Source: an uncultured Christensenellaceae bacterium (GTDB taxonomy: Bacteria > Bacillota > Clostridia > Christensenellales > UMGS416). Taken from it: a DNA stretch of 64,000 bases. How positions within the stretch are numbered: the first letter of the stretch is position 1; each line of letters opens with the position of its first letter. Position numbers and translations under genes: made by a program. The DNA is taken from NCBI GenBank assembly GCA_944376795.1, contig CALWDW010000006.1, forward strand, positions 2,632 through 66,631, given 5' to 3'. The notes beneath the pieces are model-generated. The model was not told where the DNA came from and ran no database searches. It was given only the letters and a program-made list of their open reading frames with translations. Shown piece by piece: positions 10,592 to 40,381 of the stretch.

Positions 10592-10601
10592 CTTTGGGCA
10601 T

Positions 10602-17120: not shown

Positions 17121-17163
17121 AGAGGCATCCGCACGGAGCACAGCTCCGCGGATGCCTCTTTTG
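17121..17163. terminator. bidirectional terminator between the sulfatase and the convergent amidotransferase gene
   Basis: 12-bp stem agaggcatccgc / gcggatgcctct, with aaaa on the left and tttt on the right. Confidence 0.75.
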
Positions 17164-17271
17164 GAATCCGGGGAAAAGTTCGGTGTTCAGCAGGCGTTTC
17201 CCCACGCCGCAAAGTGCGCCATCTTCCCCCAATTGCCGGCAAGCCCATCCCGTGCAGCTTTCGCTGCAGCC

Positions 17272-17961: not shown

Positions 17962-17962
17962 C

Positions 17963-18343
17963 CTACACCAGCGCAACCAGTTCGATCTCGATCCCCACGT
18001 CCTTGGGAAGACGGGCCACCTGCACCGCCGAACGCGCCGGGAACGCTCCGCTGAAATACTGCGCATACACTTCATTCACCGCGGCAAAGTCTCCCATATC
18101 GGCCAGGAATACCGTTGTCTTCACCACACGGTCAAAGCTCGTCCCCGCCTCCTGCAGCACGGCTGCCAGATTGCGAAAAACCTGATGGGCCTGGGCCTGA
18201 ATTCCGCCCTCTACCAAGGACCCCGTTGCGGGATCGATCGGAATCTGTCCGCTGGTGAACAAAAAGCCGCCCGCCACGATGGCCTGCGAATAGGGGCCGA
18301 TGGCGGCCGGCGCCTTTTCCGTGAAAACAACTTGCTTATTCAT
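17963..18343 (-). CDS. ridA: RidA family reactive-intermediate (enamine/imine) deaminase
   Basis: 126 aa, with [11 protein letters not shown]...FTSGQIP...TTVFL...[15 protein letters not shown], the classical YjgF/RidA pattern. Confidence 0.92.
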
Positions 18344-18421
18344 AAGTCTCCTCCTTATCCAATGGTGCTGTATTCTATGCAGCCGCTCGGTATTTCACAA
18401 CGCCAATGCGCCGGCAAGGGA

Positions 18422-18868
18422 TTACTCCTGCATTTTGGGAAGGATCTCCAGCAGGACCCCCAAGGCGTCGTAGAGCCGCACATTTTCTTCAGGGGTAATC
18501 TGCGTCATGCGCTCCTGGAAGATGCCCTCCAGTTCTTGGGCCTTGCCCCGAAGCTGCTTTCTGGCGAACTGGGTCAGGGCGATCTCCGACACCCGCCGGT
18601 CATCCTCCCGATTATGCCGCTCCACGAGCCCCGCCTGATACATTCGGTCAATCAGCATCGTAAGGTTAGGCTTGGATGAGTGAAGCTTCTTGGCCAGTTC
18701 GCTCATAATCATGGGCCCCTCTTCCAGCAGTATCATCATAACATTAAACTGCACCAAGGAGAAGACGTCCTTGCGCCCATGAAAAGTCTCTGAGGTAATG
18801 GTCTTCCGGATTATAGGCATTAATTGAATAATCCGTTCCGCCGTTTTCCGGCTCTGTTCATCCACCAT
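18422..18868 (-). CDS. MarR family transcriptional regulator
   Basis: 148 aa. A winged-HTH region is present (MSELAKKLHSSKPNLTMLIDRMYQAGLVERHNREDDRRV). A GGAGAGGAG RBS precedes the start. Confidence 0.85.
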   Translation of the reverse strand: MVDEQSRKTAERIIQLMPIIRKTITSETFHGRKDVFSLVQFNVMMILLEEGPMIMSELAKKLHSSKPNLTMLIDRMYQAGLVERHNREDDRRVSEIALTQFARKQLRGKAQELEGIFQERMTQITPEENVRLYDALGVLLEILPKMQE

Positions 18869-19041
18869 ACATATCTCCTCTCCACCTTAGCGGTGCCAAA
18901 GCTTCCACCGTTAATAATTACTGCCACTAATATTATAACAGCATGAAGCTTCAATGGCAAGGATGATACATTTGGACAAAACAGCCAAAAAAGGGACGAC
19001 GTGCGCCCCCTTTACGACCCGGTATCTCGCGGCAATATGCG

Positions 19042-19947
19042 CTAAACCTTTGGTGCCCGGCGGAAAGATACACATACCCGCGTACCCTCACCCGGCGCGG
19101 TCCACACTTCCATGCGGCCACCCATGTCCCGAACTAACCGGCGGCAATTATCCAAGCCCAGACCGGTTCCGGTAGCTTTGGTGGTGAAATACGGGCGAAA
19201 AGCACGACGGAGTGTTTTAGCATCCATCCCCATACCCGAATCGCTGATCCATATGGCAATGTACGCTTGGGATGGATCATCCCGAACACAAATCTCTACC
19301 CGACCGCCCTCCGGCATGGCATCCCTCGCATTGTAGATGATATTGATCAGAACGCCCATCATTCCATGAATATCCCCATATGCTACAGTGGTTTCCGAAA
19401 CCTCGCCCACCTTCAGACAGATGCATGCCGGTAGACTGTGAGCGACCGCCAAGGCCGTCCGCTCGACAAGTTCCCGTATCCATACAGGGCCCGGCACAGA
19501 ACGGGAGACATGTGTACCACCCAATACCTCCGCAGCCCTTTGCAGGCTGCGCTCGGCTGCCAATGCCAGCATGCCCGCAATAGGCCTGCCCTCTTCGTCA
19601 GTGTGTTCCTCAAGATACTTTGCCATAGCGGCCATCGCGCCTAAGTCATTCTTGATATCATGCACAATGCTGGCGGTCATTTGCCCAACATGTGCCAAGC
19701 TTTCCATCCTTCTGAATTTGCAATCCGTTTCCTGTTCATCACCGTCCCATTCCCTCTCTCCTAGCTGCTGGATATCTTCCCAGCTTAGCCGCAACATACC
19801 TTCTCCTCCATTGCGTGCCGCACTATCGTTTGCTGCAGCAACCATCGTCTTCTCCCTTTCCATGGCAGTTTTCTCAGCCTTTTCGCCAATTATGCAGAAT
19901 CCTTCCATTTCCGCGTACAGCTGAGCCATATAGACAATTCGTCCCAA
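19042..19947 (-). CDS. histidine kinase (HisKA H-box plus HATPase_c), no transmembrane segment, start uncertain
   Basis: H-box is SIVHDIKNDLGAM, N-box is IIYNARDAMPEGG, and the G-boxes are DSGMGMD and GTGLGLDNC. The ORF opens with TTG. The upstream 370 nt shows ORF fragments in other frames. No response regulator lies adjacent. Confidence 0.65.
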   Translation of the reverse strand: MGRIVYMAQLYAEMEGFCIIGEKAEKTAMEREKTMVAAANDSAARNGGEGMLRLSWEDIQQLGEREWDGDEQETDCKFRRMESLAHVGQMTASIVHDIKNDLGAMAAMAKYLEEHTDEEGRPIAGMLALAAERSLQRAAEVLGGTHVSRSVPGPVWIRELVERTALAVAHSLPACICLKVGEVSETTVAYGDIHGMMGVLINIIYNARDAMPEGGRVEICVRDDPSQAYIAIWISDSGMGMDAKTLRRAFRPYFTTKATGTGLGLDNCRRLVRDMGGRMEVWTAPGEGTRVCVSFRRAPKV

Positions 19948-26261: not shown

Positions 26262-26765
26262 ATGCAAGTTATGGAAGCCATTCAATCCCGCCGGAGCATT
26301 CGCAAGTATGCCCCCTCCCCCGTTGAGCCCGAAAAGCTCGCCCGTATCGCAGAAGCTTTTCGTCTGGCTCCCTCCGCGCGAAACCTGCAAAACTGGAAGC
26401 TCCTGATCATCCAGACCCCTGAAATCCGAGAACGGGTGCGGTCCTGCTGCAAGAGTGCCCCCACTTTTCTTCAGGAAGCCCCTGTCATCCTTGTTGCCTG
26501 CGACAGCAGCCAGGCGCTTATGCCCTGCGGCCACCGGGTGGACAGCGTTGACCTCTCCATCGCCATGTCCTTCGCCATGCTGGAGGCTCAGGAGCTGGGC
26601 CTTGGCACCTGCTGGATGGGCTCCTTCCTGGAGGAACCCCTGCGGCAGGCTCTCCAGCTGCCCGAAGGAACCAGCATTGCCGCCATTACGCCGCTGGGAT
26701 ACCCGGCAGAGTCTCCCGATCCGCGCCCCCGCAAGCCTGCGGAGGAAGTCGTCGCCTATCTGTAA
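26262..26765 (+). CDS. nitroreductase family protein
   Basis: Start at MQVMEAIQSRRSIRKY (RRSxRxF/Y FMN-binding signature). APSARNLQNWK is also present. About 167 aa. Confidence 0.85.
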   Translation: MQVMEAIQSRRSIRKYAPSPVEPEKLARIAEAFRLAPSARNLQNWKLLIIQTPEIRERVRSCCKSAPTFLQEAPVILVACDSSQALMPCGHRVDSVDLSIAMSFAMLEAQELGLGTCWMGSFLEEPLRQALQLPEGTSIAAITPLGYPAESPDPRPRKPAEEVVAYL

Positions 26766-26846
26766 ATTCAAGCCGGCCTGGCCGATGAACAATACAGCAC
26801 TTAAAAAGAGGCTGTTTGACTTGCGAAAAACTCTTCTCTGAAGCAA

Positions 26847-26882
26847 AGACGTGGAATCCCTTACGATTCCACGTCTTTTTTT
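26847..26882 (+). terminator. rho-independent terminator after the nitroreductase gene
   Basis: 12-bp stem agacgtggaatc / gattccacgtct followed by ttttttt. Confidence 0.85.
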
Positions 26883-27179
26883 GAAACCCTTTAAATAGGC
26901 AGTGGGAATAAGCCATCTTCGTCCTCCTCAGAGGACGAAATTCCCTATCACGTCCAAAGTACAGGAAAGGCGTCCAACGGCCTCGTGGAACGCTTGTCCC
27001 CTCGACTGAGGATTCTACGATGTGGTTGCACCACGCCGCGGAAAACTGCACATTTGTGCATATTGCCTCTTGCGCCACTGGCCATGCCGCTGAATAGGAT
27101 TTCTCAGGGAGAACACCTTCAAAGTACACCGGCGCCCCAGGAAGCTATATGCTCCCACCGTCGGCTCGTTTTACACCCC

Positions 27180-27725
27180 TCACTCTACCGTTGGCGCACG
27201 CTGAACCCGCGGATCGGTAAAGATATCATATTCATCATAACTCGTGGTGGAAAACTCCGAGATCACGGCGCCCTCCGGTCCGGCCTGGAACCAATGGGGC
27301 GTATTGGGAAGAATGGTATACTGCTCTCCCGGGCGCAGCACCACCTGATGCCATACGGTATACCACGCCTCATCTCCCTCCGGCGGGCGGCAGGCGGGAT
27401 CCTTTTCCGGCTCCCCGGCCACATAAAGGGTACATTGGCCATACCGGCAACGAAAGGTCTCCTCCTTGCCCGTATAGCCACGCGCAGGCAGAGGGGCATG
27501 GCAATGTTCCGGACAGGTCTGCCCCGGCAGCATCGCCATCTCCTTGGCACAGCACCGGCTGGTATTGATGTAGGTAATGAGCATCAGCCCTGTCCGCTCG
27601 AAATCATTCAAGCCAAAGTCCGCCACCTCTACGTTGTCCTTTTCCTCGCTGGTCAGTGCAATGTGGGCCGCCTGGAACAGGGCCAAAGCCCGCTCACGAG
27701 CGCGCAGATATATTTCTTTCTTCAT
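27180..27725 (-). CDS. D-lyxose/D-mannose ketol-isomerase family cupin
   Basis: 181 aa. EVADFGLNDFERTGL, AKEMAMLPGQTCPEHCH and GKEETFRCRYG are characteristic of the YdaE-type D-lyxose isomerase family. Confidence 0.75.
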   Translation of the reverse strand: MKKEIYLRARERALALFQAAHIALTSEEKDNVEVADFGLNDFERTGLMLITYINTSRCCAKEMAMLPGQTCPEHCHAPLPARGYTGKEETFRCRYGQCTLYVAGEPEKDPACRPPEGDEAWYTVWHQVVLRPGEQYTILPNTPHWFQAGPEGAVISEFSTTSYDEYDIFTDPRVQRAPTVE

Positions 27726-27871
27726 CGGCTACCTCTTTCTGCCGGGGGATCGCCCCGCTATGGATGGGATGTAGGATATCATAGTATATTTTGCCGTGTT
27801 TGTAAATCCGATTGCAAAAAACTTTCCTTATACTATAATAAAAGGAAATCTACCCAATCCCACATAAAGCA

Positions 27872-28093
27872 GTGAGGCACAATCAGGCCGAAGAGGGACC
27901 CGGATGGGTGCTGCACCTGGTCAATCCCAGCCCTGCCCCGGTGGTGGCACAGCTGGAATTCTTCCGTCCCCTGCATTCTGCCAGCTTTGTGACCTTCACG
28001 GAAGCCCCTCTGGACGCGCTGCCGGCCGACGGCTGCACCGTATGCGCAAAGCTCCCCCCCTACAGCCTACGCGCTGTGCGCGTGGAGCTATAA
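27872..28093 (+). pseudogene. 3'-terminal remnant of a glycoside hydrolase (GH38 alpha-mannosidase-like C-terminus)
   Basis: Only about 70 codons survive. EEGPGWVLHLVNPSPAPVVAQLEFF...LPPYSLRAVRVEL resembles the extreme C-terminal beta-sandwich of large GH38-type enzymes. No upstream coding sequence is present, and the divergent gene's promoter region begins about 145 nt away. Confidence 0.5.
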
Positions 28094-28445
28094 GACTTTC
28101 TTCCCTCCCGGGTCTCTGCCGCAAACGTGCAGAGGTATGGCTTCTCCCCGACCGGGCAATGCAAGGACGGAAAGCCTTGAAAAACCACACAAACTAAGCG
28201 CCCCGATTTCTCCGGCCAAGAGAGGGATCGGGGGGCCTTTTTCCGATCGGAGCGGGAACACTATCTGGTTTGGCACGCCTCCTGCAGCCGCGGAAGCAAA
28301 ATTCCATCAGTCCGGTTCTGCCGCAACCGACAGTCGATTTACAGTCTGCCATTTTCTTCCGTATGAAATGTATTCCCTAATCGCAATCTCCATCCTTATA
28401 ATAAAACATGGAAAAATCTATCAATTCATGATAGGAGGAATCAAT

Positions 28446-29072
28446 GTGAAGAAAATGTATGGTTACGCAAGGGTATCGGCCAAGGACCAATGTGAAGCCC
28501 GCCAGTTCCATGCGCTGCAGGAATTCGGCGTACCGGAACACACCATCTACCTTGACAAGTGCAGCGGAAAGGACTTCCAGCGTCCCCAGTATCTCCGGCT
28601 GCTCCAAAACCTTCAGCCCGGCGATGTACTGGTGGTCAAGTCCATCGACCGGCTTGGACGGAACTATGCCGAAATCCAAGAACAGTGGCGCATAATCACC
28701 AAAGTCAAAAAGGCCGACATCGTAGTGCTGGATATGCCGCTGCTGGACACCCGGCAAAAGTCCTCCGATCTGACGGGAACATTCATCGCGGACCTGGTGC
28801 TGCAAATTCTGTGCTACGTAGCCCATGTGGAGCGGGAAAACATCAAGCAGCGACAGGCCGAAGGCATTGCTGCGGCCAAGGCGCGTGGTGTGAAATTCGG
28901 CAGAAAAAAGATGCCCATCCCCGATGATTTTTACGCTCTTTGGGAAAAATACCAAAAAAAACAAATAACCGCGCGATCCGCAGCAAAAGAATTGAATATT
29001 GCCCACAGCACTTTCCTCAAATGGGGGAAGTCTACCGACGACTACCACAATATTTTGGGGTTTTCAATGTAG
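28446..29072 (+). CDS. small serine recombinase (resolvase/invertase family, Hin/Gin-like domain order)
   Basis: The N-terminal catalytic motif is MYGYARVSAKDQ (Y-x-R-V-S). VVKSIDRLGRN is present, as is a C-terminal HTH (ITARSAAKELNIAHSTFLKW). The likely start is GTG 28446, 7 nt after AGGAGG; the alternative is ATG 28455. About 208 aa. Confidence 0.88.
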   Translation: MKKMYGYARVSAKDQCEARQFHALQEFGVPEHTIYLDKCSGKDFQRPQYLRLLQNLQPGDVLVVKSIDRLGRNYAEIQEQWRIITKVKKADIVVLDMPLLDTRQKSSDLTGTFIADLVLQILCYVAHVERENIKQRQAEGIAAAKARGVKFGRKKMPIPDDFYALWEKYQKKQITARSAAKELNIAHSTFLKWGKSTDDYHNILGFSM

Positions 29073-29082
29073 ACTTTTGAAA
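29064..29082. repeat. left inverted repeat (IR-L) of the candidate invertible segment
   Basis: Sequence is tcAATGTAGACTTttgaaa. The core AATGTAGACTT occupies 29066-29076 and contains the recombinase stop codon TAG (29070-29072). The site has its own dyad, TTTCAA-N9-TTGAAA. Confidence 0.6.
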
Positions 29083-29098
29083 TCAACTGTGATAGAAT
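29070..29098 (+). promoter_or_regulatory. promoter-like element P1, currently facing the pilus operon
   Basis: TAGACT (29070-29075, inside the IR-L core), a 17-nt spacer, then an extended -10, TGaTAGAAT (29090-29098). Confidence 0.4.
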
Positions 29099-29130
29099 GT
29101 AAATATCATAATGTGTTTATTGTAGGTCCC

Positions 29131-29159
29131 ATTCTAAGCGCACAAAACATAAGGGTCAA
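29131..29159 (-). promoter_or_regulatory. promoter-like element P2 inside the segment, currently facing the recombinase gene
   Basis: On the minus strand this reads TTGACC (29159-29154), a 17-nt spacer, then TAGAAT (29136-29131). Confidence 0.55.
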
Positions 29160-29207
29160 ACGATTAACATTTTCCTATTAGTTGAATCATATGTGTAAGC
29201 AAGATGG

Positions 29208-29226
29208 TTTTAGAAGTCTACATTTA
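29208..29226. repeat. right inverted repeat (IR-R) of the candidate invertible segment
   Basis: Sequence is ttttagAAGTCTACATTta. The core at 29214-29224 is the exact reverse complement of the IR-L core. The extended match is 16 of 19. Confidence 0.6.
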
Positions 29227-29264
29227 ATACCATTTCCAACGTCAGCAAACCGGAGGACGCAGCC

Positions 29265-29756
29265 ATGACCGACCAGGAAATGAGAAAACTGAGCCGCCAA
29301 GATCTGCTGGAGCTGCTCCTGGCCCTGCGGCAGGAGCGCGATGCCCTACAGGAGGAATTGGAACAAACCAAAGCCGCCCTGCAGGACCGCATGCTCAAAA
29401 TTAATGAGGCCGGTTCCATCGCCGAAGCCACTTTGCGGCTGAGTGGCGTCTTTGAGGCGGCACAGTTTGCCGCAGAACAGTACCTTGTCAATATCCGCGC
29501 TCTCAGCGAAAGGCAGCGGGACATCTGCGCCCAAGAGGAGGCCAAAGCCCGCGCCATGATCGAGCAGCAGCTGAAAACTGCCGCCCAGACTGCCCAAAAA
29601 ATGGAAGAAACATCCCGGCAGAAGTGCCAGGCAATGGAGGCCGAGGCTAAGCAGCGCGCCGAAGCCTATTGGCAGGACGCCATCGCCCGCCTGCAGGATT
29701 TTTACAAGCAGTACACAGGGCTGAAGGAGCTCTTTAGCACGGGAGAACCCAAATGA
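29265..29756 (+). CDS. hypothetical coiled-coil protein, first gene of the pilus operon
   Basis: 163 aa. A GGAGG RBS precedes it. The sequence is rich in E/Q/A/L/R in a heptad-like pattern and has no signal peptide. Its stop overlaps the next start (ATGA). Confidence 0.7.
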   Translation: MTDQEMRKLSRQDLLELLLALRQERDALQEELEQTKAALQDRMLKINEAGSIAEATLRLSGVFEAAQFAAEQYLVNIRALSERQRDICAQEEAKARAMIEQQLKTAAQTAQKMEETSRQKCQAMEAEAKQRAEAYWQDAIARLQDFYKQYTGLKELFSTGEPK

Positions 29757-30355
29757 GCGTACGGCGCCCGCTCGATACCGGCACAGCCGACCTGATCCCC
29801 ACCGTAGAGCAGCTGGAAGCGGAGCTGCACCGGGAAATCCAGCGAAAGCGCTACGGCATCGTAACCCGCAGTACCCTTTTCACGCTGATCACGGTGGCAG
29901 CCGCCGCAATCCTCGTTGCCACGCTGTTCCTGCCCGTGCTGCGCATCTACGGCCTGTCCATGACGCCTACCGTCAGCGGGGGAGACATCGTAGTATCTCT
30001 CCGGGAGAGCACCTTCTCCCGCGGCGACATCATTGCCTTCTATTACAATAATAAGATCCTGGTGAAGCGTGTCATAGCCTTTCCCGGGGAATGGGTGGAT
30101 ATTGACACGGCGGGCAATGTAACCGTCGACGGCGATCCCTTGGATGAACCCTATGTGACGACGAAGGCCTTGGGGGACTGTGATATTGCCCTCCCCTACC
30201 AGGTGCCGGACGGAAGGCTCTTCGTCTTAGGTGATAATCGAATCATCTCCTCCGACAGCCGGGTCTCCGCAGTGGGCTGCATCGCGGAGGAGCAGATCGT
30301 GGGGAAGCTTGTCTTCCGCGTCTGGCCCCTGGGCCGTCTTGGCCCGTTGGAATGA
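29753..30355 (+). CDS. signal peptidase I (S26A), pilus-locus associated
   Basis: N-terminal TM anchor. Box B is YGLSMTPT (Ser nucleophile), box D is LVKRVIAFPGE (Lys general base), and box E is VLGDNRIISSDSR. Confidence 0.88.
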   Translation: MSVRRPLDTGTADLIPTVEQLEAELHREIQRKRYGIVTRSTLFTLITVAAAAILVATLFLPVLRIYGLSMTPTVSGGDIVVSLRESTFSRGDIIAFYYNNKILVKRVIAFPGEWVDIDTAGNVTVDGDPLDEPYVTTKALGDCDIALPYQVPDGRLFVLGDNRIISSDSRVSAVGCIAEEQIVGKLVFRVWPLGRLGPLE

Positions 30356-30379
30356 CATTAAGGATGGAGGGAAACGGCC

Positions 30380-33300
30380 ATGAAACGCGAACCGCTCCAA
30401 GATCAAGCCATGAAATCCATACGAGACCGCCAGCGCCATCGGTGGTGGAAGAAGATTGTCGCCGGCATGTCGGCAGTGGTGGTGTTTGTCACCTCCTATC
30501 TGCTCATTCTGCCTGCCATCACCATGGGGCGGCAGAATCCCTCCCTGGAGGCGACCAAGACCCTGGCGCTTCCGGGAGAGACGCTCACCGTAACAGCCTC
30601 CATCTTTCCCGAAGGCAGAGCGGATCAAGTTTACTATATCGCAGCCTACGGTGACAATGCCGGATTAACCGGCGTCTCCTTCCGGAATGATACCGCTTCG
30701 GTGGCTCTGGATGGGGGCGGGACCTTGACGCTGCATCGTGAAGTCATCTCCGGCGGGGTAGGCTATTGGTTTACCCTTCCGACCGGTGCAGGCACGTCCC
30801 AGCTTTCCCTGAACTGGATCAACGGAATCGGCGCGCTGCGAGAGATCGCCGTACCGGCCGAGACACCGGTCCCCTCCGAATCCCCGGTCGTCGAGACACC
30901 GGCCCCCTCCGAATCCCCGGTCATCGACACACCGGCGCCTTCCGAATCCCCGATCGTCGACACACCAGCCCCCTCCGAATCCCCGATCGTCGACACACCG
31001 GCGCCTTCCGAATCCCCGATCGTCGACACACCGGCGCCCTCCGAATCCCCGATCGTCGACACACCAGCCCCCTCCGAATCCCCGGTCGTCGTGACGCCGA
31101 CCCCCTCCGAATCCCCGGCCACAGCAACTCCTGCCATCGCAGAGGCCCCTTCCTTGGAGAGGCCTTCCGGCGGCGAGACAGCTTTCCTGGGCATGACCCT
31201 TTCCAATAGCCAAACCGCTGTTTCCCTCTCCGCGCTATCCGCCGCAGAAGCCTCCATTTCCGCCTCTTCTACCCCCGCAGACGACTCCACGCCTGCAGCG
31301 GCTGCCTCTCCTGCGCCCCTTCCCTCGGAGGAGTCTGACGCCCAGGATGCGGCGGTACAGTACATAGACCAGGCAGGGGATCCTGCCGCCCCGGGCAGTC
31401 TGACCCTCTCCGCCGGCAATGCTGGCACATTGGATGCGGCCAGGGTAGCGGCCACAGCCGGCAGCACGCTTACCCTGCGCTGGGATCCCGAAGCGGAAGC
31501 CCTGCCTACCGAAACCCCTGTTCCCGAGGATAACAAGGCCGAGGATCCTTCCATAGAAAAGGCCCTCACCATCCCGGAGGGGGTAAGCAGCTGGGCAGCC
31601 GCGTATAAGCCCCAGGCAACCCCAGAGCCTCTGGAAACCCAGGGACCCGCCGCCAACGGCGGCGCGCGCTCCGTCATGCTGCTCAGTGCCCGCAGCACGG
31701 GAATCGATCTGCGCAATTACCTCACGACGCTAACCGTTGAGCGAAAGGTAGGCGACCAGTGGCAGGAAGCAACCCAGCTCTATCATAACGATTCCATCCG
31801 GGTGACGCTGGCATACGAGCTGCCTAAGGGAGTCGCCACGGCTGCTAACCGCGTGTTTTTCTATCAGATCACCGGCGGCGTTATGCTCAACACAGTGGAA
31901 AGCGGACCCGTTCTGGATGGGGACGAAGAAGTAGGAACCTATACCATCTCTCAAGAGGGTCTTGTCACCATTACTTTTGATAATGTGTATGTGGAAGATG
32001 GCACAGAAGTCCATGGTTCCTTGCGCTTTGAAGGAATGGTCACGGCCACCGGAGAAGGAGAAGACGTTACAATCGACTTTGGCGGCTCAGGAACCACCAT
32101 TCCTGTGTTGCCCGATCCAAACAGTCAAGGCCTTTCCATCGTCAAATATGGAACCTTTTACCCGAAAGTTGGCAACATAGGCTATAGTATTATCATCTCC
32201 ACAGACGAAGGATCGGACGGCCCCATCACGGTCACCGACCAATTCCAGCACACGCCGGAGTACGGCGCCATTGCATATGACGAGAGAAGCTTCGTCATTC
32301 AGCATGGTACCTGGAAGGAAGAAACAGGGTCGTGGAGTATTGATCACAATCCAGTAACGGGTGGGAATATCCGCATCGAGCCGCAGGACGAAACCACCGC
32401 GGCTTCGTTTACCATCACCGGTCTGCCGGCGTTAGGACCAAACGAAGGTTACTTGATTACCTATACGGCTACGCCCACCCTTTCTGAGAGCGGAGACGCA
32501 TCGGGTTACACGGAGTTTAATAACCTTGCCACCGCGGCCGACACCACAAACAGCGTTACAGCCTCGGCCAAAATCAAAGTTTCCAATGCAAAAATCAGCA
32601 AAACCGGAACATATAACCCGCTGACCGGCACCATCGTATGGACGATCCTGATCAACCAGGACCGGCAGGATATCAGCAGAATGGTACTCAACGATGAGAT
32701 GGTCTATCTTGATGCCGAAGGAACCTCTGTGGATTTGCCTTTGCCAGACCAAGTCACCCTTACGCCCTATGACGCAAGCGGAAATCCGAAGGCCCCGCAG
32801 TCCATCTCCCTTCCCTATTCCTTCCCCGAAGGATCCACGGATGCCTATATGGTAACCTATGAGACCGCACTCCCCACACTCCCCGAGGGGACGCCGGTCA
32901 CCGTCATCAATCAGGCTTTCTTGGGCCGGTTTTTTGCGGAGGCCGAAGTCACAGGTGAAATACCTGGCGAGACCGGTTATGCTATCGTCAAATACCGAAC
33001 CAGCGCATCCATGGGTAGCGATGTATCCCAATTTAACTGGGAATCGGTCATCACCTATCCGAGCGATATTCAGACGGCAGACAGTCTAACCTACGTAGAC
33101 TGGATTGCCAATTTGTTCCCCAATATTGACGGATATCCCCCAATTGCAGGTACGCATCATACCACCAAGAGCCGCCTCCAGTCTACCCTCGCGGTTCTCA
33201 CCGCACAATATGTTCCTATTGATCCCAGCGGTTACTCGGTTTATGTAATCACCGAGGAAAATTTAAACAAGATTCTCCCTGTTGGGGTTCGTGATGACGC

Positions 33301-35476
33301 CACTACCATCGGTTGGTATCTATCCGGCGAATATGATAGTCTCGACTTTAATACTCTTGTGGATCCTCAATACTGGACGCCCATTGAGAGTGTAGCTGAC
33401 AACACCCCTCTCTCTATGTTCAAAATCGTATTCAACGATACGGGATTTGCCCAGCTGAAGGCCGCTGGTAACGGCGTGGTCATCCGCTACAGTACCCAGG
33501 TCGACATGGATGCTTGGAGAGCCGTTGAGGACAGCGAGGTTGTGATGGTGAATTTAGGTCGGTTTCCTTATGATTTTGCTAACACCTGGAACACTCTCAC
33601 TCTAGAGGAAAAGCTTAATAAGCAAACCAGTCCTACCGGCGCGGCTTTCACGGGAGACACCTGGGACGCAAATGGCCAGCTCTATACCTATGACACAACC
33701 TCCTACACCGACGGTGACCTCAGCCTCGCCTATCACGAGACGGACGGCCGGCTGCACTATCGCATTCTTCTGAATGGCATTTATTTAGTGGGAAAGGATG
33801 ATATCCAAATTACCGATCAACTTCCCGATGGCGCCACATTGGATCCGAATTCCATCCAGATCATGCAGCACCTTGCCACCAATCCTCAGATAGGCCGTGA
33901 ATGGGATAATAGTACAAAATGGTACCTAACATGGGACATGGATGAGAAAACAAATACTATAACTTTCACCTTCCAGCCCCGTGGATATGTCAGCGAATAC
34001 GATGACATCGGCATTTACTACGATGTCCTCATCGAGGAGACGCAGGGCGATCATACCTATACGAATAGCGCCGTGTGGGACGGCTCCTCGGACAATACCC
34101 ATACCACCGTCCGAGACGAGGAACCGGTACTGGATAAAACTAGCCAGATTTTAGAGGATTTATCCACCAACGGTCGTACCACGGTTCGGTATTATGTAGT
34201 TGTAAACCCCCGCGGGGAGGATCTGGTTCCTAATAACAACGCCATTACGCTGGAGGATGTTCTCACGGTGCCGGACGGCGTCTCGGCGGCCTTTGACCCC
34301 GTATCCGTCCATGTCTACGCCTATGCCGCCGACAAGCCGGATGATCACTACTGCGGAAGGGAACTGTCCGACTTTTTGACCGCTTACGACCAGGATACGT
34401 ATACCATCACCTTTACCCTGCCCGACAGCCGCGCCATGGTCGTGGTCTACGACTATATCATTGATCAAGGAAGCTACGCGACAGATTTTAATATTCTGAA
34501 CACGGCCAACCTGACAGGCTACACCTATGACGGTGCAGACTTCGAACTGCTTATCCAGTATCAGGACTCCAGCGCCACTGCCAACAAGGCAACGCTGACC
34601 GTCTATAAACACGCTGCCAACAGCATCACCAATCTCTTAGACGGAGCGAGCTTCTGTTTGGAACGATATGAGAAGCCAACCGACGGCAGCAGCAGCTACC
34701 AATGGGCCCGAACTTCTGTCACTGCAAATACTGACGGTCTCTTTACGATTGAGGATGGCTCCATCCCCCTAAGCTTTCTGGAGGAAACTTCCCTCTCCAA
34801 TACGCTGTACCGGCTGACGGAGGTCACACCGCCGACAGGATATGTGCTGGATGAAACACCCCACTACTTCGTGTGGCTGGGTTCTGCTACCGACACGGAG
34901 GATTCTGTCTATCAAACCATGGCTGCTGCAGGCGCAATCCCGGATGGCGTGACACAGGATGACATCCTGTTCATTCCCTTCTCCACTTCCGGAACCATGT
35001 ATATCTCCAATGAGCCTATTGAGCTTGTGGTACGCAAAGCCTGGCAGGACATGGATGACATTCCCATCGATCCGCCAGCCAACGTCTCCGGCGTAACAAT
35101 CCGGCTGTGGCAGTATGACAAAAATGATTCAACCTATAAGCAGCAATACGAAGAAGACGTCACACTTTCGGCCGAGAACAATTGGCGTTACGCCTGGACC
35201 CTGCCTAAAGCAGACGAGGGTGGTACGCGCGCGTATTACTACAAGGTGGAGGAATTGGATGTACCCGGCGGCTACATCGTCTCCTATTCCCCCAGCAACG
35301 AAGCGCAGATAACCAGCGGAGAGATCGCCGTATTCAATCACAAGGTCGACTTTGTCCTCCCAGAGACCGGTGGGTACAACGGTCCGCTGTGGTATACCGT
35401 CGGCGGGCTCAGCCTGGTCATTCTCGCAGGGCTTTTCCGCAAAAGACTGCGCCGCCGGGAAACCCGTACTCCCTAA
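30380..35476 (+). CDS. 1698-aa LPXTG-anchored surface protein, putative pilus tip adhesin with isopeptide/CnaB-type domains
   Basis: N-terminal signal/TM region (WWKKIVAGMSAVVVFVTSYLLILPAITMG). Eight copies of a TPAPSESPIVD repeat. An E-box-like YRLTEVTPPTGYVLD. A C-terminal CnaB-like VVRKAWQD...YYYKVEELDVPGGYIVSY. The sorting signal is LPETGG followed by a hydrophobic stretch and RKRLRRRE. Confidence 0.88.
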   Translation: MKREPLQDQAMKSIRDRQRHRWWKKIVAGMSAVVVFVTSYLLILPAITMGRQNPSLEATKTLALPGETLTVTASIFPEGRADQVYYIAAYGDNAGLTGVSFRNDTASVALDGGGTLTLHREVISGGVGYWFTLPTGAGTSQLSLNWINGIGALREIAVPAETPVPSESPVVETPAPSESPVIDTPAPSESPIVDTPAPSESPIVDTPAPSESPIVDTPAPSESPIVDTPAPSESPVVVTPTPSESPATATPAIAEAPSLERPSGGETAFLGMTLSNSQTAVSLSALSAAEASISASSTPADDSTPAAAASPAPLPSEESDAQDAAVQYIDQAGDPAAPGSLTLSAGNAGTLDAARVAATAGSTLTLRWDPEAEALPTETPVPEDNKAEDPSIEKALTIPEGVSSWAAAYKPQATPEPLETQGPAANGGARSVMLLSARSTGIDLRNYLTTLTVERKVGDQWQEATQLYHNDSIRVTLAYELPKGVATAANRVFFYQITGGVMLNTVESGPVLDGDEEVGTYTISQEGLVTITFDNVYVEDGTEVHGSLRFEGMVTATGEGEDVTIDFGGSGTTIPVLPDPNSQGLSIVKYGTFYPKVGNIGYSIIISTDEGSDGPITVTDQFQHTPEYGAIAYDERSFVIQHGTWKEETGSWSIDHNPVTGGNIRIEPQDETTAASFTITGLPALGPNEGYLITYTATPTLSESGDASGYTEFNNLATAADTTNSVTASAKIKVSNAKISKTGTYNPLTGTIVWTILINQDRQDISRMVLNDEMVYLDAEGTSVDLPLPDQVTLTPYDASGNPKAPQSISLPYSFPEGSTDAYMVTYETALPTLPEGTPVTVINQAFLGRFFAEAEVTGEIPGETGYAIVKYRTSASMGSDVSQFNWESVITYPSDIQTADSLTYVDWIANLFPNIDGYPPIAGTHHTTKSRLQSTLAVLTAQYVPIDPSGYSVYVITEENLNKILPVGVRDDATTIGWYLSGEYDSLDFNTLVDPQYWTPIESVADNTPLSMFKIVFNDTGFAQLKAAGNGVVIRYSTQVDMDAWRAVEDSEVVMVNLGRFPYDFANTWNTLTLEEKLNKQTSPTGAAFTGDTWDANGQLYTYDTTSYTDGDLSLAYHETDGRLHYRILLNGIYLVGKDDIQITDQLPDGATLDPNSIQIMQHLATNPQIGREWDNSTKWYLTWDMDEKTNTITFTFQPRGYVSEYDDIGIYYDVLIEETQGDHTYTNSAVWDGSSDNTHTTVRDEEPVLDKTSQILEDLSTNGRTTVRYYVVVNPRGEDLVPNNNAITLEDVLTVPDGVSAAFDPVSVHVYAYAADKPDDHYCGRELSDFLTAYDQDTYTITFTLPDSRAMVVVYDYIIDQGSYATDFNILNTANLTGYTYDGADFELLIQYQDSSATANKATLTVYKHAANSITNLLDGASFCLERYEKPTDGSSSYQWARTSVTANTDGLFTIEDGSIPLSFLEETSLSNTLYRLTEVTPPTGYVLDETPHYFVWLGSATDTEDSVYQTMAAAGAIPDGVTQDDILFIPFSTSGTMYISNEPIELVVRKAWQDMDDIPIDPPANVSGVTIRLWQYDKNDSTYKQQYEEDVTLSAENNWRYAWTLPKADEGGTRAYYYKVEELDVPGGYIVSYSPSNEAQITSGEIAVFNHKVDFVLPETGGYNGPLWYTVGGLSLVILAGLFRKRLRRRETRTP
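30863..31126 (+). repeat. 33-nt coding tandem repeat, 8 copies (TPAPSESP[IV]VD)
   Basis: Direct reading gives near-identical 33-nt units. The central four are almost perfect and the outer copies diverge. Confidence 0.9.
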
Positions 35477-35554
35477 AGATCCAGGACGGCATCCGTCCTG
35501 CCAAACGATAGACGTCCCTGCAATAAAGAACCGCCAAGAAAGGAGCAACAATCC

Positions 35555-37246
35555 ATGAAGAATCTCACAAAGAGATGCCTCATCGTCCTGCTGGCCGTAA
35601 CCCTGCTGGCCGTGTTCTCCATTCCGGCCCTGGCCGCGGGAGACAACACCATCACCATCCAGAAAACAACCGCAGGCTATACGTACAAGGCCTACCAAGT
35701 ATTCGCCGGCGAGGTAGCAGAAGACGGTGGGAATACAATTCTGACCAACATCGACTGGGGCAGTGGCGTGGACGGTTCAGCGCTTCTTACCGCCCTGCAA
35801 GGTGACGGAACCGTGGGCAGCAGCTTTGCCGACTGCACCACCGCAGCAGACGTAGCCAATGCCCTGGACGACTTCTCTAGCGATAACCTGAAAATCGTCG
35901 CGGAGCTGATCGCAGCGAACCTTACTACGGTTGCCGTCACCAGCACCTACAACACCACCAACTACACCATCAGCGGTCTGGATTCCGGCTATTATTTCAT
36001 CCAGAGCACCCTCGTTCCCGAAACAGGGACCCATACCGAGTACATGCTCAAAGTGGTCAAGTCCATTACTGTGACACCGAAAGACAGCGACATCCCCGGT
36101 GTAGAGAAAAAGGTCCTGGAAGATGACAAATATACCGATAACGGTGGGTATGGCGCCGGTTACAATGATGTGGCCGACTACGACATTGGCGATACCGTGC
36201 CCTTCAAGCTCATCGGAACCATACCGAACATGGCTGCTTACGAGACCTACGCCTATACCTTCCATGATACCATGTCTGCCGGCCTCACGCTGGACGAGAG
36301 CAGTATCCAAGTCTACCTGACGACTGCCAAGGAAGCAACTCTTGACACGCCGCTGACCGCAGACGGCAACTATACCGTGACAACCTCCGGCCTAGATGAT
36401 GGCTGCAGCTTTGAGGTCGCCTTTACGGACTTGAAAACCGTACCCGGCATCGGCGCCAACCGGTATGTCATCGTTACCTTCAACGCGACGCTGAATGAAA
36501 ATGCCGACATTGGTCTGGACGGCAACCCCAATACAGTCTACCTGACCTTCTCGAACAATCCGTACGATGACAGCACGGGGAAAACCCCCGACGACAAGGC
36601 GATCGTCTTCACCTACCAGCTGAACACCACCAAGGTCGACGGCGAAGATCAGACACCGCTGCCCAATGCCCAGTTTGTACTCTTCAACGAGGAAAAGACG
36701 GCTGTCGCTCGGATTGATGCTGCAGGAAAAGTCGATGGTTGGATTCCGCTTACCACAATCCAGGCCGGAGCCACCGCAGCAACCATTACGGCCGAGCAGC
36801 TGCAGGGGTACACTCCCGCAGGGGGAGGATCCATCATTCTCACGTCGGCAGAGACAGAGACCATAGGCCTCTTCACCGTAACAGGCCTGGACGATGATGT
36901 CTACTATCTCCGCGAGATCGCAGCGCCTGCCCTCTATAACCCGCTGGAGGACGACGTGAAAGTCGAAATTAATGCGACCACGAACAACGGACAGACATGG
37001 GTAGATTTCAGCGCCGCCTCGGCTTTGACCGCGCTGGAGGTTAAGGTAAATGACGGCGCAGGAGCAGCCGGAACGCTTAATACCGGCGCTGTGGCCATCA
37101 ACGTGGAAAACAATAAGGGCAATACGCTGCCGGAGACCGGCGGCATAGGTACCACGCTGTTCTATGTCATTGGCGGTACGCTGGCCGTAAGCGCCGGCAT
37201 CCTGCTGGTGATTCGCAAGCGCACACGCTTCGAGCATCATTCGTAA
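35555..37246 (+). CDS. LPXTG-anchored major (backbone) pilin, SpaA/SpaH-type
   Basis: Signal peptide ending IPALA-AGD. N-terminal TITIQKTTAGYTYKAYQVFAG. A pilin-motif-like SITVTPKD (Lys176, nt 36080-36082). E-box YYLREIAAPALYNP. The sorting signal is LPETGG plus a hydrophobic tail and RKRTR. Confidence 0.85.
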   Translation: MKNLTKRCLIVLLAVTLLAVFSIPALAAGDNTITIQKTTAGYTYKAYQVFAGEVAEDGGNTILTNIDWGSGVDGSALLTALQGDGTVGSSFADCTTAADVANALDDFSSDNLKIVAELIAANLTTVAVTSTYNTTNYTISGLDSGYYFIQSTLVPETGTHTEYMLKVVKSITVTPKDSDIPGVEKKVLEDDKYTDNGGYGAGYNDVADYDIGDTVPFKLIGTIPNMAAYETYAYTFHDTMSAGLTLDESSIQVYLTTAKEATLDTPLTADGNYTVTTSGLDDGCSFEVAFTDLKTVPGIGANRYVIVTFNATLNENADIGLDGNPNTVYLTFSNNPYDDSTGKTPDDKAIVFTYQLNTTKVDGEDQTPLPNAQFVLFNEEKTAVARIDAAGKVDGWIPLTTIQAGATAATITAEQLQGYTPAGGGSIILTSAETETIGLFTVTGLDDDVYYLREIAAPALYNPLEDDVKVEINATTNNGQTWVDFSAASALTALEVKVNDGAGAAGTLNTGAVAINVENNKGNTLPETGGIGTTLFYVIGGTLAVSAGILLVIRKRTRFEHHS

Positions 37247-37270
37247 CCGCAACGACGCATTCCTCCACAC

Positions 37271-37302
37271 CCCCGGAGGGAAAAAGGCCCTCCCCTCCGG
37301 GG
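37271..37302 (+). terminator. intercistronic GC-rich hairpin after the major pilin gene (possible partial terminator or RNA stabiliser)
   Basis: 10-bp stem ccccggaggg / ccctccgggg. No T-run follows it. Confidence 0.4.
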
Positions 37303-37327
37303 AAATGTGTGACAAGGAGAGTTCTGT

Positions 37328-38176
37328 ATGAAGAGGAAAAAAGCAACCCTCGCCCTGGTATTGGTATTCCTAACAGGGCTGGCTCTGCTGCTGTATCCCC
37401 TGGTCAACGACTTCTGGAACTCCCTGCATCAGTCCCGTGCCATAGCCAACTATACCCAGGCCGTGGCAGAGATTGATAATGACCACTACCGGCAGCTTTG
37501 GTCAGACGCCCAGACGTACAACGTCGCGCTGGTAGAGAATGACCGCCGCTATACCCCCACCTCGGAAGAGACCGCCCTGTATGAGAGTCTGCTGGACATT
37601 ACGGAAACGGGGATTATGGGGTATATTGAAATTCCCTCCATTCAGGTATCACTTCCCATTTACCACGGCGTCGACGAGGCGGTGCTGCAGACGGCCATAG
37701 GACATATTGAGGGAACGTCTCTCCCCGTGGGCGGAGAGAGTACCCACTGTGTAATCTCGGGACATCGTGGGCTCCCCTCCGCCAAACTATTCACCGACTT
37801 GGATCAACTGGAGGAGGGCGATACCTTCCTGCTGCGGGTGCTGGATGAGACGCTGACCTATGAGGTGGATCAGATTCATATCGTTGAGCCCTATGAGATT
37901 GACCGGCTGGAAATAGAGGAAGGTGAGGACTTATGCACACTGGTAACCTGTACGCCCTACGGCGTCAATTCCCACAGGCTCTTGGTAAGAGGGCATCGGG
38001 TCGCCTCCTCGACTCCGGCACTATCCGTCCGCGTTACAGCAGATGCTCTGCAGATGAATACCCTCCTGGTGGCCACGGCCGTCGCGGCGCCGGTGCTGCT
38101 GATTCTTCTGATTTCCGTACTGCTATGGCCCTCGGGCCGGAAAAAGCGCACGCACAGCGTGCTATCGCGCAAGTGA
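37328..38176 (+). CDS. srtC: class C (pilin-polymerising) sortase
   Basis: N-terminal TM region, the lid region and GHRG. The active site is TLVTCTPYGVNSHRLLVRGHRV. It has the C-terminal hydrophobic anchor typical of class C sortases. Confidence 0.88.
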   Translation: MKRKKATLALVLVFLTGLALLLYPLVNDFWNSLHQSRAIANYTQAVAEIDNDHYRQLWSDAQTYNVALVENDRRYTPTSEETALYESLLDITETGIMGYIEIPSIQVSLPIYHGVDEAVLQTAIGHIEGTSLPVGGESTHCVISGHRGLPSAKLFTDLDQLEEGDTFLLRVLDETLTYEVDQIHIVEPYEIDRLEIEEGEDLCTLVTCTPYGVNSHRLLVRGHRVASSTPALSVRVTADALQMNTLLVATAVAAPVLLILLISVLLWPSGRKKRTHSVLSRK

Positions 38177-38187
38177 GGTGACAAGTT

Positions 38188-39255
38188 ATGGGTGTACGAC
38201 AGTCCTGGAGCAGGTTCACGGCAGTTTTGCTGTCGGTGATCCTCTTGTCGCTCCTGCTGGCGATTCCCGTCCGGGCTGCCGGGCAGATTGATCCTGCCCG
38301 CCAAGGTTCCCTGACCGTGCATTTCGGTCAAGAGGATACGGGCTTCCCGGATGTGACATTCCGGCTGTATTATGTGGCCAGCATCTCTTCCGATGCAGCG
38401 TTGACACTTGCCGGCGACTTCTCCGCATACCCGGTAACCTTCGACGGCCTCAGTACGTCGGAATGGAGAGCTTTGGCCCAGACCTTAGCCGGCTATGCCG
38501 CACGAGACGACCTGCCTCCCCTGCAAACGGCCCAAACCAATGCGGACGGTGACGCCTCCTTCCCGCTGCTGCCCACAGGCCTCTACCTGGTTGTGGGAGA
38601 CACTTACAGCAGCGGCCCGGATACCTATACCCCGGAAGCCTTTCTGGTCAGCCTGCCCAATGCAGATGAGACGACCGGCGATTGGGTCTATGACGTCACG
38701 GCCCACTGCAAATATGATGTCCGTCACGACGAGCCCCAAACCGTTAGCCGGCAGGTCATCAAGCTCTGGGATGATGCCGATGCTGCGGAGCATCGTCCTG
38801 CGCAGATTGTTGTGCAGCTCCTGCGGGACGGGCAAGTGTATGATACCGTAACGCTCGACAAAGGGAATGACTGGCAGTATACCTGGACGGAGCTGGATGC
38901 CGGTTCGCATTGGCAGGTTACCGAATATGATACGCCGGAAGGATACTCCGTCCTGGTCAGCCAAGAGGGCGCCGTCTTTATCATGACCAACCGCTACCAC
39001 GAGGATGTGCCGACTCCGTCGCCTTCCCCCTCCCCAACCCCGTCTGCGCCCACGCCCTCGCCATCCCCTACTTTCTCCACGGCCGCCCCCTCTCCCAGCC
39101 CCACTTCTACCCCCATTCCCACCCCTACGGCTACGGGGAAACCTCCAATCCTTCCGCAAACCGGTATGCTCTGGTGGCCGGTACCTGTTCTGGCGTGCGG
39201 TGGTATGCTGCTTTTCCTCATCGGGTGGATTCAGCGGCGGAAGCATGATGCGTAG
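38188..39255 (+). CDS. LPXTG-anchored minor/basal pilin with a CnaB-type domain
   Basis: Signal peptide. CnaB-like QVIKLWDD...IVVQLLRDGQVYDTVTLDKGNDWQYTWTELD...WQVTEYDTPEGYSV. A P/S/T-rich stalk. The sorting signal is LPQTGM plus a hydrophobic tail and RRKHDA. Confidence 0.82.
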   Translation: MGVRQSWSRFTAVLLSVILLSLLLAIPVRAAGQIDPARQGSLTVHFGQEDTGFPDVTFRLYYVASISSDAALTLAGDFSAYPVTFDGLSTSEWRALAQTLAGYAARDDLPPLQTAQTNADGDASFPLLPTGLYLVVGDTYSSGPDTYTPEAFLVSLPNADETTGDWVYDVTAHCKYDVRHDEPQTVSRQVIKLWDDADAAEHRPAQIVVQLLRDGQVYDTVTLDKGNDWQYTWTELDAGSHWQVTEYDTPEGYSVLVSQEGAVFIMTNRYHEDVPTPSPSPSPTPSAPTPSPSPTFSTAAPSPSPTSTPIPTPTATGKPPILPQTGMLWWPVPVLACGGMLLFLIGWIQRRKHDA

Positions 39256-39976
39256 CGCCGGAAAGAAGCCCGGGGCCTGGCTGATGGCCTGCGGCCTGGC
39301 GCTTTTAGCGGCAGCGCTGCTTTTAACCGGTTACAACCTTTGGGATGAGCGGCGCGCCCAGGAATCCACCGATCACATCCTGGCCGAGCTGCGCAGCCGT
39401 ACCCAGCCGCTGGCCACGCTGCCGTCACCCGTACCGTCTCCTTCGCCAGCACCGTCTCCTCCCCCCTCTTCATCGCCTGCCGCACGTCCCGTTATCTCCG
39501 ACACAGCCACAGCCGCCGTCACGCTTGCGACCACCGCTTCCCCTACGCCGTCCCCTACGCCGACGCCCGCGCAGAAGATGCCCGCCGTGGAGGTCGAGGG
39601 AAACCAGTACATTGGCACACTGGACATTCCCTCGCTGCGGCTTTCCCTGCCGATCATGGAGAGTTGGAGTTATCCAAAGCTTCGCCGGGCTCCCTGCCGT
39701 TATGCCGGATCTGTCTATACGAATGATTTGGTTATTGCGGGGCACAATTACCGGGCGCATTTTGGTACGCTCAAGCAGCTTTCCGCAGGCGCTTCCGTAG
39801 TCTTCACCGATATGGCGGGAAACCAATTCCATTACAACGTCGCAGAGATTCAAGTGCTGGAGCCAACGGCAGTAGAAAACATGCTTGCAGGGGGCTGGCC
39901 ACTCACACTGTTTACCTGCACCTATGGCGGCCAAACGCGGCTGGCTGTGCGGTGCGTATCCGCAGACGGAAACTGA
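39245..39976 (+). CDS. second sortase (TLFTC active site; class not resolvable by eye)
   Basis: Starts MMRSAGKKPGAWLMACGLALLAAALLL (N-terminal anchor), followed by a P/S-rich linker, VIAGHNY and the catalytic TLFTCTYGGQTRLAVR. It overlaps the minor pilin gene by 11 nt and has no C-terminal anchor. Confidence 0.8.
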   Translation: MMRSAGKKPGAWLMACGLALLAAALLLTGYNLWDERRAQESTDHILAELRSRTQPLATLPSPVPSPSPAPSPPPSSSPAARPVISDTATAAVTLATTASPTPSPTPTPAQKMPAVEVEGNQYIGTLDIPSLRLSLPIMESWSYPKLRRAPCRYAGSVYTNDLVIAGHNYRAHFGTLKQLSAGASVVFTDMAGNQFHYNVAEIQVLEPTAVENMLAGGWPLTLFTCTYGGQTRLAVRCVSADGN

Positions 39977-39998
39977 TCTTGGCAAATCCATTCTCCAA

Positions 39999-40045
39999 GG
40001 GCCCCTCGGATCAAACAAAACGGTTTGATCCGAGGGGCCCTTTTC
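39999..40045 (+). terminator. rho-independent terminator ending the pilus operon
   Basis: 18-bp stem gggcccctcggatcaaac / gtttgatccgaggggccc followed by ttttcgg. Confidence 0.85.
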
Positions 40046-40381
40046 GGCATTCTTCCTTTCTCGGAAACGGCGCTCGTCATCCGCAAAAAAACAGCGGCGC
40101 CCGCAATATTGTTTCGGATTCAGGGAAGATGGGCTCTCTCTTCTCTTCCTCCCAGCGGCCCGCCCTTTATCCGGAAGGTTTGGGTTTGAGCATGGGCATG
40201 CCTTGGCGCCGTAGTCAAAAGAAAATCCCCGCTCAGCCGGAAAGACTGAGCGAGGCAATGCAGCATACATAAAACTAAGGCAAGAAATGCGTACAGGGCG
40301 CAAAACGGAATTGCACAGATTCAGCAGCGGCTCTGCATGCCTGTTGTACTTCGCATACAAGAAGCCGGCATTGAGCGAAAC

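Follow-up and report, generated by a model that had tools for sequence, protein, structure and literature searches.

A candidate phase-variable sortase-pilus operon behind an invertible promoter segment in an uncultured Christensenellaceae bacterium

We analyzed a stretch of 64,000 nucleotides (nt) from an uncultured Christensenellaceae bacterium (contig CALWDW010000006.1 of assembly GCA_944376795.1), here called the window, with a focus on a plus-strand locus at which a serine recombinase gene is followed by seven genes for a coiled-coil protein, a type I signal peptidase, a putative tip adhesin, a backbone pilin, a class C sortase, a minor pilin, and a second sortase. The original prediction, made from the DNA letters alone, had placed these eight open reading frames (ORFs) on the plus strand and had read the last seven as a complete sortase-dependent pilus operon. 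The ORF coordinates and family matches confirmed the placement, and the presence of a class C sortase, a backbone pilin, and two further LPXTG proteins confirmed the operon. What had been overlooked was an inverted repeat between the recombinase gene and the operon, and the fact that the DNA at this repeat inverts. Taken together, the results point, with a probability of about 80%, to a phase-variable sortase-pilus operon under recombinase-driven promoter inversion.

The recombinase gene (28446–29072, plus strand) encodes a protein of 208 amino acids (aa), and its GTG start codon lies six bases past an AGGAGG motif. The protein matched the Pfam family Resolvase (PF00239, E = 3.6e-28) and, over its full length, PHROG 125, which is annotated as “DNA invertase” (E = 1.8e-49). 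Among solved structures, matches were obtained with Sin/Bin3 (2r0q, E = 2e-24), gamma-delta resolvase (4e-22), and Gin (1e-11). The catalytic Ser11 is invariant in the family alignment, and the C-terminal helix-turn-helix is conserved.

The gap between the recombinase stop codon (29072) and the first operon gene (29265) comprises 192 nt. An inverted repeat was found here, with two arms of 30 nt (29059–29088 and 29202–29231) that are 80% complementary. Its exact core has a length of 11 nt (AATGTAGACTT / AAGTCTACATT), and within the window AATGTAGACTT occurs at these two places only. A lone copy of the core with one mismatch (AATATAGACTT, 5118–5128) has no partner nearby and is probably a chance occurrence. 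The repeat contains two hix-like sites of 26 base pairs (bp), both dyad-symmetric and in inverted orientation to each other. The left site (29059–29084) consists of the half-sites GGTTTTCAATGTA and GACTTTTGAAATC with the centre AG at 29071–29072, and the right site (29206–29231) consists of GGTTTTAGAAGTC and TACATTTAATACC with the centre CT at 29218–29219. The invertible segment between the two centres (29072–29218) is about 147 bp long. The same site pattern was present in 14 recombinase-linked loci, representing the seven switch lineages in which the recombinase precedes the pilus cassette. From 28 half-sites of these lineages the consensus GGTTT[T/C][A/G]AAAGT[A/C] was derived, with G1 and G11 being invariant and AG as the central dinucleotide. 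The last codons and the stop codon of the recombinase gene are situated inside the left site; since they are within the core that both sites share, the protein is unchanged by inversion. The homologues have variable C-terminal tails (columns 201–234 of alignment A1), and some of the called products are extended to 225–234 aa; this variation arises from the overlap of the gene end with the left recombination site.

Comparison with other contigs revealed that the segment between the sites inverts in nature. Ten public metagenome contigs (L001–L010) encode an identical 163-aa coiled-coil protein. In seven independent contigs among them (L001–L005, L009, and L010) the segment was exactly reverse-complemented while the flanks were unchanged, and the remaining three (L006, L007, and L008) had the orientation of the window. 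For L002 and L003, BLAST aligned positions 26505–29076 of the window with 99.9% identity on the plus strand, positions 29231–29059 on the minus strand, and the sequence from 29202 onward again on the plus strand, with 98.6–99.2% identity. The segment allele of these two contigs is the exact reverse complement of that of the window, showing that both orientations exist in a single sub-lineage. The breakpoints of the seven flipped contigs were all located inside the 11-nt core.

Two promoter candidates, which face each other at a distance of about 20 bp, were identified on this one segment. Candidate P1 (29070–29098, plus strand) combines the –35 element TAGACT, which is the crossover core, with a spacer of 17 nt and the –10 element TGTGA-TAGAAT at 29088–29098; it scored 9/12 plus TG in the consensus scan. 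Candidate P2 (29131–29159, minus strand) consists of TTGACC, 17 nt, and TAGAAT and scored 10/12. In the orientation of the window, P1 reads into the pilus operon, and P2 reads toward the recombinase, away from the operon. The P1 design ([C/T]AGACT, 17 nt, TA[G/A]A[A/G]T) was found in seven of seven cassette lineages, always at one end only, and the rest of the segment has diverged. It was also found in all six other GTAGAC-type switches examined (from Lachnospiraceae, Coriobacteriia, and others), and thus in 13 of 13 switches in total. P2 is confined to the lineage of the window. If P1 is taken as the functional promoter, the operon is ON in the window and OFF in the flipped contigs and in all other lineages, and the conservation of P1 makes it fairly likely that the window indeed represents an ON state driven by P1. 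A further conserved motif, TTACAT(A), is situated at the inner end without the –10 element (the left one in the flipped form), 24–29 nt from the core, in all seven lineages (about 29185–29195 on the minus strand in the window). A TATA-rich box follows 12–14 nt past this motif, a distance smaller than that in standard promoters.

The recombinase belongs to a large family with more than 8,000 matches, many of which are 70–78% identical; its relatives on genome contigs have identities of 74% or less. In about 32 of 80 related recombinase loci on genomes, a pair of inverted repeats spaced 95–145 nt is present 10–40 nt past the stop codon. The related loci stem from Oscillospiraceae, Lachnospiraceae, Christensenellales, Erysipelotrichales, Coriobacteriia, and others, and the repeat cores vary between them (GTAGACTT, GTGTACTTTT, and GGTATACC). 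The genes past the related invertases (L017–L096) encode restriction-modification helicases and methylases, flagellin, proteins with BspA-LRR or InlB repeats, glycosyltransferase operons, and surface proteins with FctA, SpaA, and VWA domains, including a VWA protein of 2387 aa with nine FctA domains. Such cargo is typical of phase variation. The idea that the recombinase is always linked to pili was rejected, as pilus genes were found downstream in only one of the 80 genome loci. In this locus (L085, from a Lachnospiraceae bin, 10591–19500), a homologous recombinase and a switch with the core GTAGACTT precede a different pilus operon, which starts with an OmpR-type response regulator and not with the coiled-coil/peptidase pair. 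The diversity of the cargo and the single pilus locus in 80 suggest that the invertase is a general switch module that was recruited to pilus operons here and in L085. From its family and its position we infer that the recombinase is the invertase of a promoter-inversion switch.

The first gene past the switch encodes the coiled-coil protein (29265–29756, plus strand, 163 aa). No signal peptide or membrane segment was detected, in line with a cytoplasmic location. An AlphaFold2 model based on an alignment of 30 sequences predicted one single long helix from residue 11 to residue 158 (predicted local distance difference test, pLDDT, of 88), which makes the label “coiled-coil” given in the original prediction a fair one. 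The family is represented by 4,761 sequences at E ≤ 1e-3 and 715 at E ≤ 1e-30, and neither Pfam nor NCBIfam has a model for it. A profile search of the PDB retrieved only the V-ATPase G stalk at E = 0.1, and the match in PHROGs was uninformative. Assignments as DivIVA or YodN were rejected, as these matches were weak and below the cut-offs. In the alignment of the family (A3), two cysteines are invariant and a unit E-T-x3-C-x2-M recurs, which is amplified in some members (P0054, P0079, and P0118). Exclusive occurrence of the protein in pilus loci was also rejected, because it stands alone in L144, L160/L161, and P0112.

The stop codon of the coiled-coil gene and the start codon of the signal peptidase gene overlap in the sequence ATGA at 29753. 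This junction and a second overlap of 11 nt between the minor pilin and second sortase genes (39245–39255), both of which had been reported in the original prediction, were seen in the sequence. The signal peptidase (29753–30355, plus strand) belongs to the S26 family (PF10502, E = 3.9e-31) and reached 113 bits with TIGR02227, which has a cut-off of 47. The Ser69/Lys105 dyad and the GDNR box are intact, and among the homologues encoded in cassettes the serine is kept in 81 of 82 cases and the lysine in 79 of 79. The protein is thus predicted to be an active peptidase for the secreted proteins of the operon.

The putative tip adhesin (30380–35476, plus strand) has a length of 1698 aa. An N-terminal signal or transmembrane segment is followed by a Pro/Ser-rich repeat stalk, by about 1000 residues without a family, and then by SpaA and CnaB domains and an LPETG motif at residue 1660. 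The stalk is encoded by a tandem repeat of 33 nt (30859–31117, 7.8 copies, 90% matches), which specifies the peptide PAPSESPIVDT. The number of copies varies between strains, resulting in adhesins of 1686 aa (L001), 1698 aa (window), and 1707 aa (L002). For residues 1–1400, no Pfam family was found apart from a sub-threshold match with Collagen_bind; no sequence match was found among solved structures, and a homologue search with residues 440–1100 was empty. A single-sequence AlphaFold2 model had a pLDDT of 34.6 and was unusable.

The backbone or major pilin (35555–37246, plus strand, 563 aa) contains a GramPos_pilinBB domain (E = 1e-24), a SpaA domain, and an LPXTG anchor, and reached 78 bits with TIGR04226 (cut-off 30). 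Its motifs include VTPK at residue 173 with the pilin-motif lysine K176, the E-box YYLREIAAP at 450, and LPETG at 525. The class C, pilus-polymerizing sortase (37328–38176, plus strand, 282 aa) scored 284.7 bits with NF033745, which has a cut-off of 160; it carries TLVTC at residue 204 and membrane segments at the N- and C-terminus. The minor pilin (38188–39255, plus strand, 355 aa), which is probably basal, has pilinD1 and CnaB domains, a Pro/Ser/Thr-rich tail, and LPQTG at residue 322. The second sortase (39245–39976, plus strand, 243 aa; PF04203, E = 4e-15) has TLFTC at residue 221, an N-terminal membrane anchor, and a Pro-rich linker. It scored below every sortase class cut-off of NCBIfam, and a curated class could thus not be assigned; its best relative among solved structures was found at E = 6.5e-4, and its position is kept in related cassettes. 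With a class C sortase, a backbone pilin, a tip adhesin, and a basal pilin, as predicted from the family matches, the pilus machinery is complete at the gene level.

The operon is followed by an intrinsic terminator (39997–40050, plus strand) with a perfect 20-bp stem (39997–40042) and a subsequent U tract (UUUU). Its free energy is –41.2 kcal/mol (z = –9.2), and none of 200 shuffled sequences was equally stable, so that the strong terminator of the original prediction was verified. No riboswitch or leader RNA was found in the 5’-region; an Rfam search of the window matched four tRNAs only. The guanine-plus-cytosine content of the window is 49–61%, the flanks of the locus are ordinary chromosomal genes, and all close relatives are Clostridia metagenome bins.

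Two observations concern the surroundings of the locus. The regions 15577–17076 and 54475–56358 (a sulfatase and a heparinase II/III-like protein) and a mannosidase remnant suggest a forager on host glycans, a lifestyle that would fit a mucosal adhesin. In a strain that is 96.7% identical to the window, a GH38 alpha-mannosidase gene is intact up to the recombinase gene (comparison with L001 and L004). In the window, only a 3’-remnant of GH38 is left (27880–28093), with a lyxose-isomerase-like gene region in its place, indicating that the left flank of the locus was rearranged between strains.

The conservation of the operon was analyzed with 80 metagenome loci that were found with a profile of the coiled-coil family. 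A comparison of homology and synteny had been suggested in the original prediction, and it showed that the same gene order recurs in gut and animal metagenomes. In almost all loci with downstream sequence, the gene after the coiled-coil gene is that of the S26 peptidase. In loci that extend far enough, the order of adhesin, backbone pilin, class C sortase, CnaB pilin, and second sortase is kept with few exceptions; L144, L160, and L161 are without the cassette, and the adhesin was unmatched in a few loci. Additional gene contexts were consistent with this order. A recombinase and switch in front of the cassette are restricted to the clade nearest to the window (L011–L014, L097–L100, L103, L106, and L107), and in another cassette lineage a TetR gene is present at the position of the recombinase. 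The recombinase is therefore not a part of the cassette as such. In L011 and L012 (1–9000), in which the coiled-coil protein is about 60% identical to that of the window, the whole unit of recombinase, switch, and cassette is situated among genes for ArdA, topoisomerase, CD1107-like, and NikA/MobC proteins, a context that looks like that of a conjugative element.

Several observations weigh against a phase-variable operon and have to be considered together with other explanations. Both orientations were found in the window's own lineage only, they come from different samples, and the L011 lineage had a single orientation in eight of eight contigs. Several contigs also have a low coverage of 2–5x. 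The two orientations might thus be assembly artefacts or fixed strain differences, with no active switch involved. This is highly improbable. An exact repeat of 11 nt is much shorter than reads and k-mers, and the seven flipped contigs, all with breakpoints exactly in this core, stem from several assemblers and samples, so that misassembly is not a credible cause; in addition, contigs with identical segment alleles and flanks of 99.9% identity differ in their orientation alone. The assignment of the ON state is less firm, as both P1 and P2 are consensus matches only, and the stronger-looking P2, which matches the sigma-70 consensus better than any other sequence of the segment, points opposite to P1. 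If P2 was the active promoter, ON and OFF would swap: the window would be OFF, and the flipped contigs, in which P2 lies about 110 nt ahead of the start codon and is directed toward the operon, would be ON, as would the orientation of all other lineages. We consider this rather unlikely, because P2 is not conserved in six other cassette lineages (L011, L013, L098, L099, L103, and L106), whereas P1 is conserved in every switch examined, and because a chance promoter-like match is plausible in an AT-rich segment.

The remaining explanations concern the recombinase and the pilus itself. In the original prediction the adjacent recombinase was an unexplained accessory; along this line, the pilus island would be constitutive or conventionally regulated, and the recombinase might be an unrelated resolvase of a mobile element. 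The absence of the recombinase from most cassette lineages, its replacement by the TetR gene in one of them, and the related copy on the conjugative-element-like backbone would be in accord with this. However, the inversion is precise and takes place at sites directly adjoining the stop codon of the recombinase gene, the design of recombinase plus repeat recurs in front of other surface-protein genes, and neither a transposase nor another resolvase target was found nearby in the window. An unrelated recombinase is therefore very unlikely, and with the segment found flipped next to its gene the enzyme can no longer be regarded as an unexplained accessory. It could also be argued that the LPXTG proteins are monomeric, wall-anchored adhesins that are not polymerized into a pilus, since polymerization is a prediction from the genes and the backbone pilin scored 89.5 bits with the full-length SpaH/EbpB model, just below the cut-off of 95. 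This is improbable in view of the class C sortase, which scored far above its own cut-off, of the pilinBB domain, pilin-motif lysine, and E-box of the backbone pilin, and of the three-pilin architecture that is kept across lineages. A phase-variable pilus operon is, in summary, the most likely interpretation, and adhesive pili are probably switched on and off in individual cells of this bacterium.

We propose the following mechanism for the switch. The recombinase would bind to the two inverted 26-bp sites, exchange strands at the central AG/CT, and flip the segment of about 147 bp. The –10 element on the segment would be placed 17 bp from the TAGACT core, which would double as the –35 element. 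In the orientation of the window, P1 would read through the segment into the operon, and this is presumably the ON state; in the flipped orientation, P1 would read antisense into the recombinase gene, presumably the OFF state. The steps in the ON state are all deduced from knowledge of the respective protein families. One transcript of about 10.8 kb would extend to the terminator at 39997–40042. The three LPXTG proteins would have their signal peptides cleaved off by the signal peptidase, whose catalytic residues are intact. The class C sortase would join the backbone pilins via the VTPK lysine (Lys176); the adhesin of 1698 aa would be placed at the tip, and the LPQTG pilin would terminate the fibre. 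The coiled-coil protein may be a conserved cytoplasmic partner of the peptidase, and a role in scaffolding or localization is a guess.

The closest known system is the switch in front of the gene SZO08560 of Streptococcus equi subsp. zooepidemicus, the recombinase of which was reportedly later named PinR and is also said to invert part of the FimIV pilus locus. In both systems a serine recombinase gene adjoins a short promoter segment that inverts, with a length of about 115 bp in the streptococcus and about 147 bp in the window, and surface proteins anchored by sortase (LPXTG) are encoded under its control. Both also have the same repeat core, GTAGACTT(TA) there and AATGTAGACTT here, and the two systems are likened by core and layout. 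The difference is that a seven-gene pilus operon is controlled in a gut Clostridia-type genome here, whereas a single internalin-like protein is controlled in the streptococcus. The promoter of SZO08560, an LPXTG protein gene, inverts between GTAGACTTTA and TAAAGTCTAC, adjoining the recombinase gene, and the inverted state leads to transcripts antisense to the recombinase gene (Holden et al. 2009, PMC2654543). These streptococcal antisense transcripts correspond to the direction of P1 in the flipped orientation described above.

Likeness to other DNA switches is more limited. Hin, Gin, and Cin are serine invertases of enteric bacteria and phages that act on 26-bp dyad-symmetric sites (hix, gix, and cix, respectively) with a crossover of 2 bp at the centre. 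A helix-turn-helix at the C-terminus of a small serine recombinase, a recombinase gene that adjoins the switch, and inverted 26-bp dyad-symmetric sites with a 2-bp centre are common to these systems and the locus studied here. In contrast to them, the segment here is about 150 bp long and carries promoter elements only, the invertase gene is outside of the segment, the putative –35 element coincides with the crossover core, and neither a Fis nor an enhancer element was identified. Type 1 fimbriae of E. coli, which are adhesive fibres as well, have an operon under the ON/OFF control of a short invertible promoter, the fimS switch, but this switch is inverted by tyrosine recombinases (FimB and FimE), the fimbriae are of the chaperone-usher type, and the host is Gram-negative. 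Bifidobacterium breve is, like the presumed host of this locus, a gut commensal with a heritable and reversible ON/OFF control of sortase pili; there, phase variation occurs via polymerase slippage at an intragenic G-tract (PMC9187656), and not via DNA inversion as here.

A dedicated signal peptidase had been named in the original prediction among the parts of an unrecognized layout, but the peptidase by itself is not a new feature of pilus loci, as SipA/LepA is known from streptococcal pilus clusters. SipA/LepA is encoded in the FCT pilus region of S. pyogenes and is needed for polymerization, and SipA has Asp and Gly at the positions of the catalytic Ser and Lys (PMC4049620). Pneumococcal PI-2 and the srtF cluster of S. 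suis are further pilus loci with a signal-peptidase homologue. These loci and the locus analyzed here share a gene for an S26-family protein that is situated among those for the adhesin, the backbone pilin, one or more sortases, and the minor pilin. However, the catalytic residues that are lost in SipA, a non-proteolytic, chaperone-like protein, are kept here (Ser69 and Lys105), the peptidase gene precedes the adhesin gene and is paired with a coiled-coil gene, which is absent from the streptococcal loci, and the polymerizing sortase is of class C.

In the literature searched, neither the cassette nor a combination of an inverton with a sortase, a pilus, or LPXTG proteins in Clostridia was found. 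The suggestion that the layout is an unrecognized pilus type was thus upheld insofar as the cassette is recurrent and conserved and is not described in the searchable literature, but the peptidase and the recombinase are not novel features. A sortase pilus, a SipA-like peptidase, and a serine-invertase inverton are each of an already known kind; their combination, including the pair of coiled-coil protein and predicted active peptidase and the apparent split-promoter design, is not described in the literature searched. Tentatively, the results may be joined in a twofold interpretation: that an invertase-switch family with a split promoter, in which the core provides the –35 element and the segment the –10 element, is widespread in gut Firmicutes and Coriobacteriia and was recruited at least twice to sortase-pilus operons; and that the cassette is a new pilus-biogenesis module in which a coiled-coil protein is paired with an active dedicated signal peptidase. 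If the split promoter is real, the binding of the recombinase and the use of the promoter would be physically coupled.

In Gram-positive gut bacteria, sortase pili are major adhesins and also major targets of immunity, and little is known about their regulation in the abundant, mostly uncultured Clostridia. The ratio of the two orientations would be a simple marker of the pilus state that can be scored in any metagenome, and it could be related to host, diet, and inflammation without culture. The coiled-coil protein and the signal peptidase, which is predicted to be active, unlike the inactive streptococcal SipA, are candidate factors for pilus assembly. Lastly, the presence of a related unit on a conjugative-element-like backbone implies that phase-variable adhesion may be transferable.

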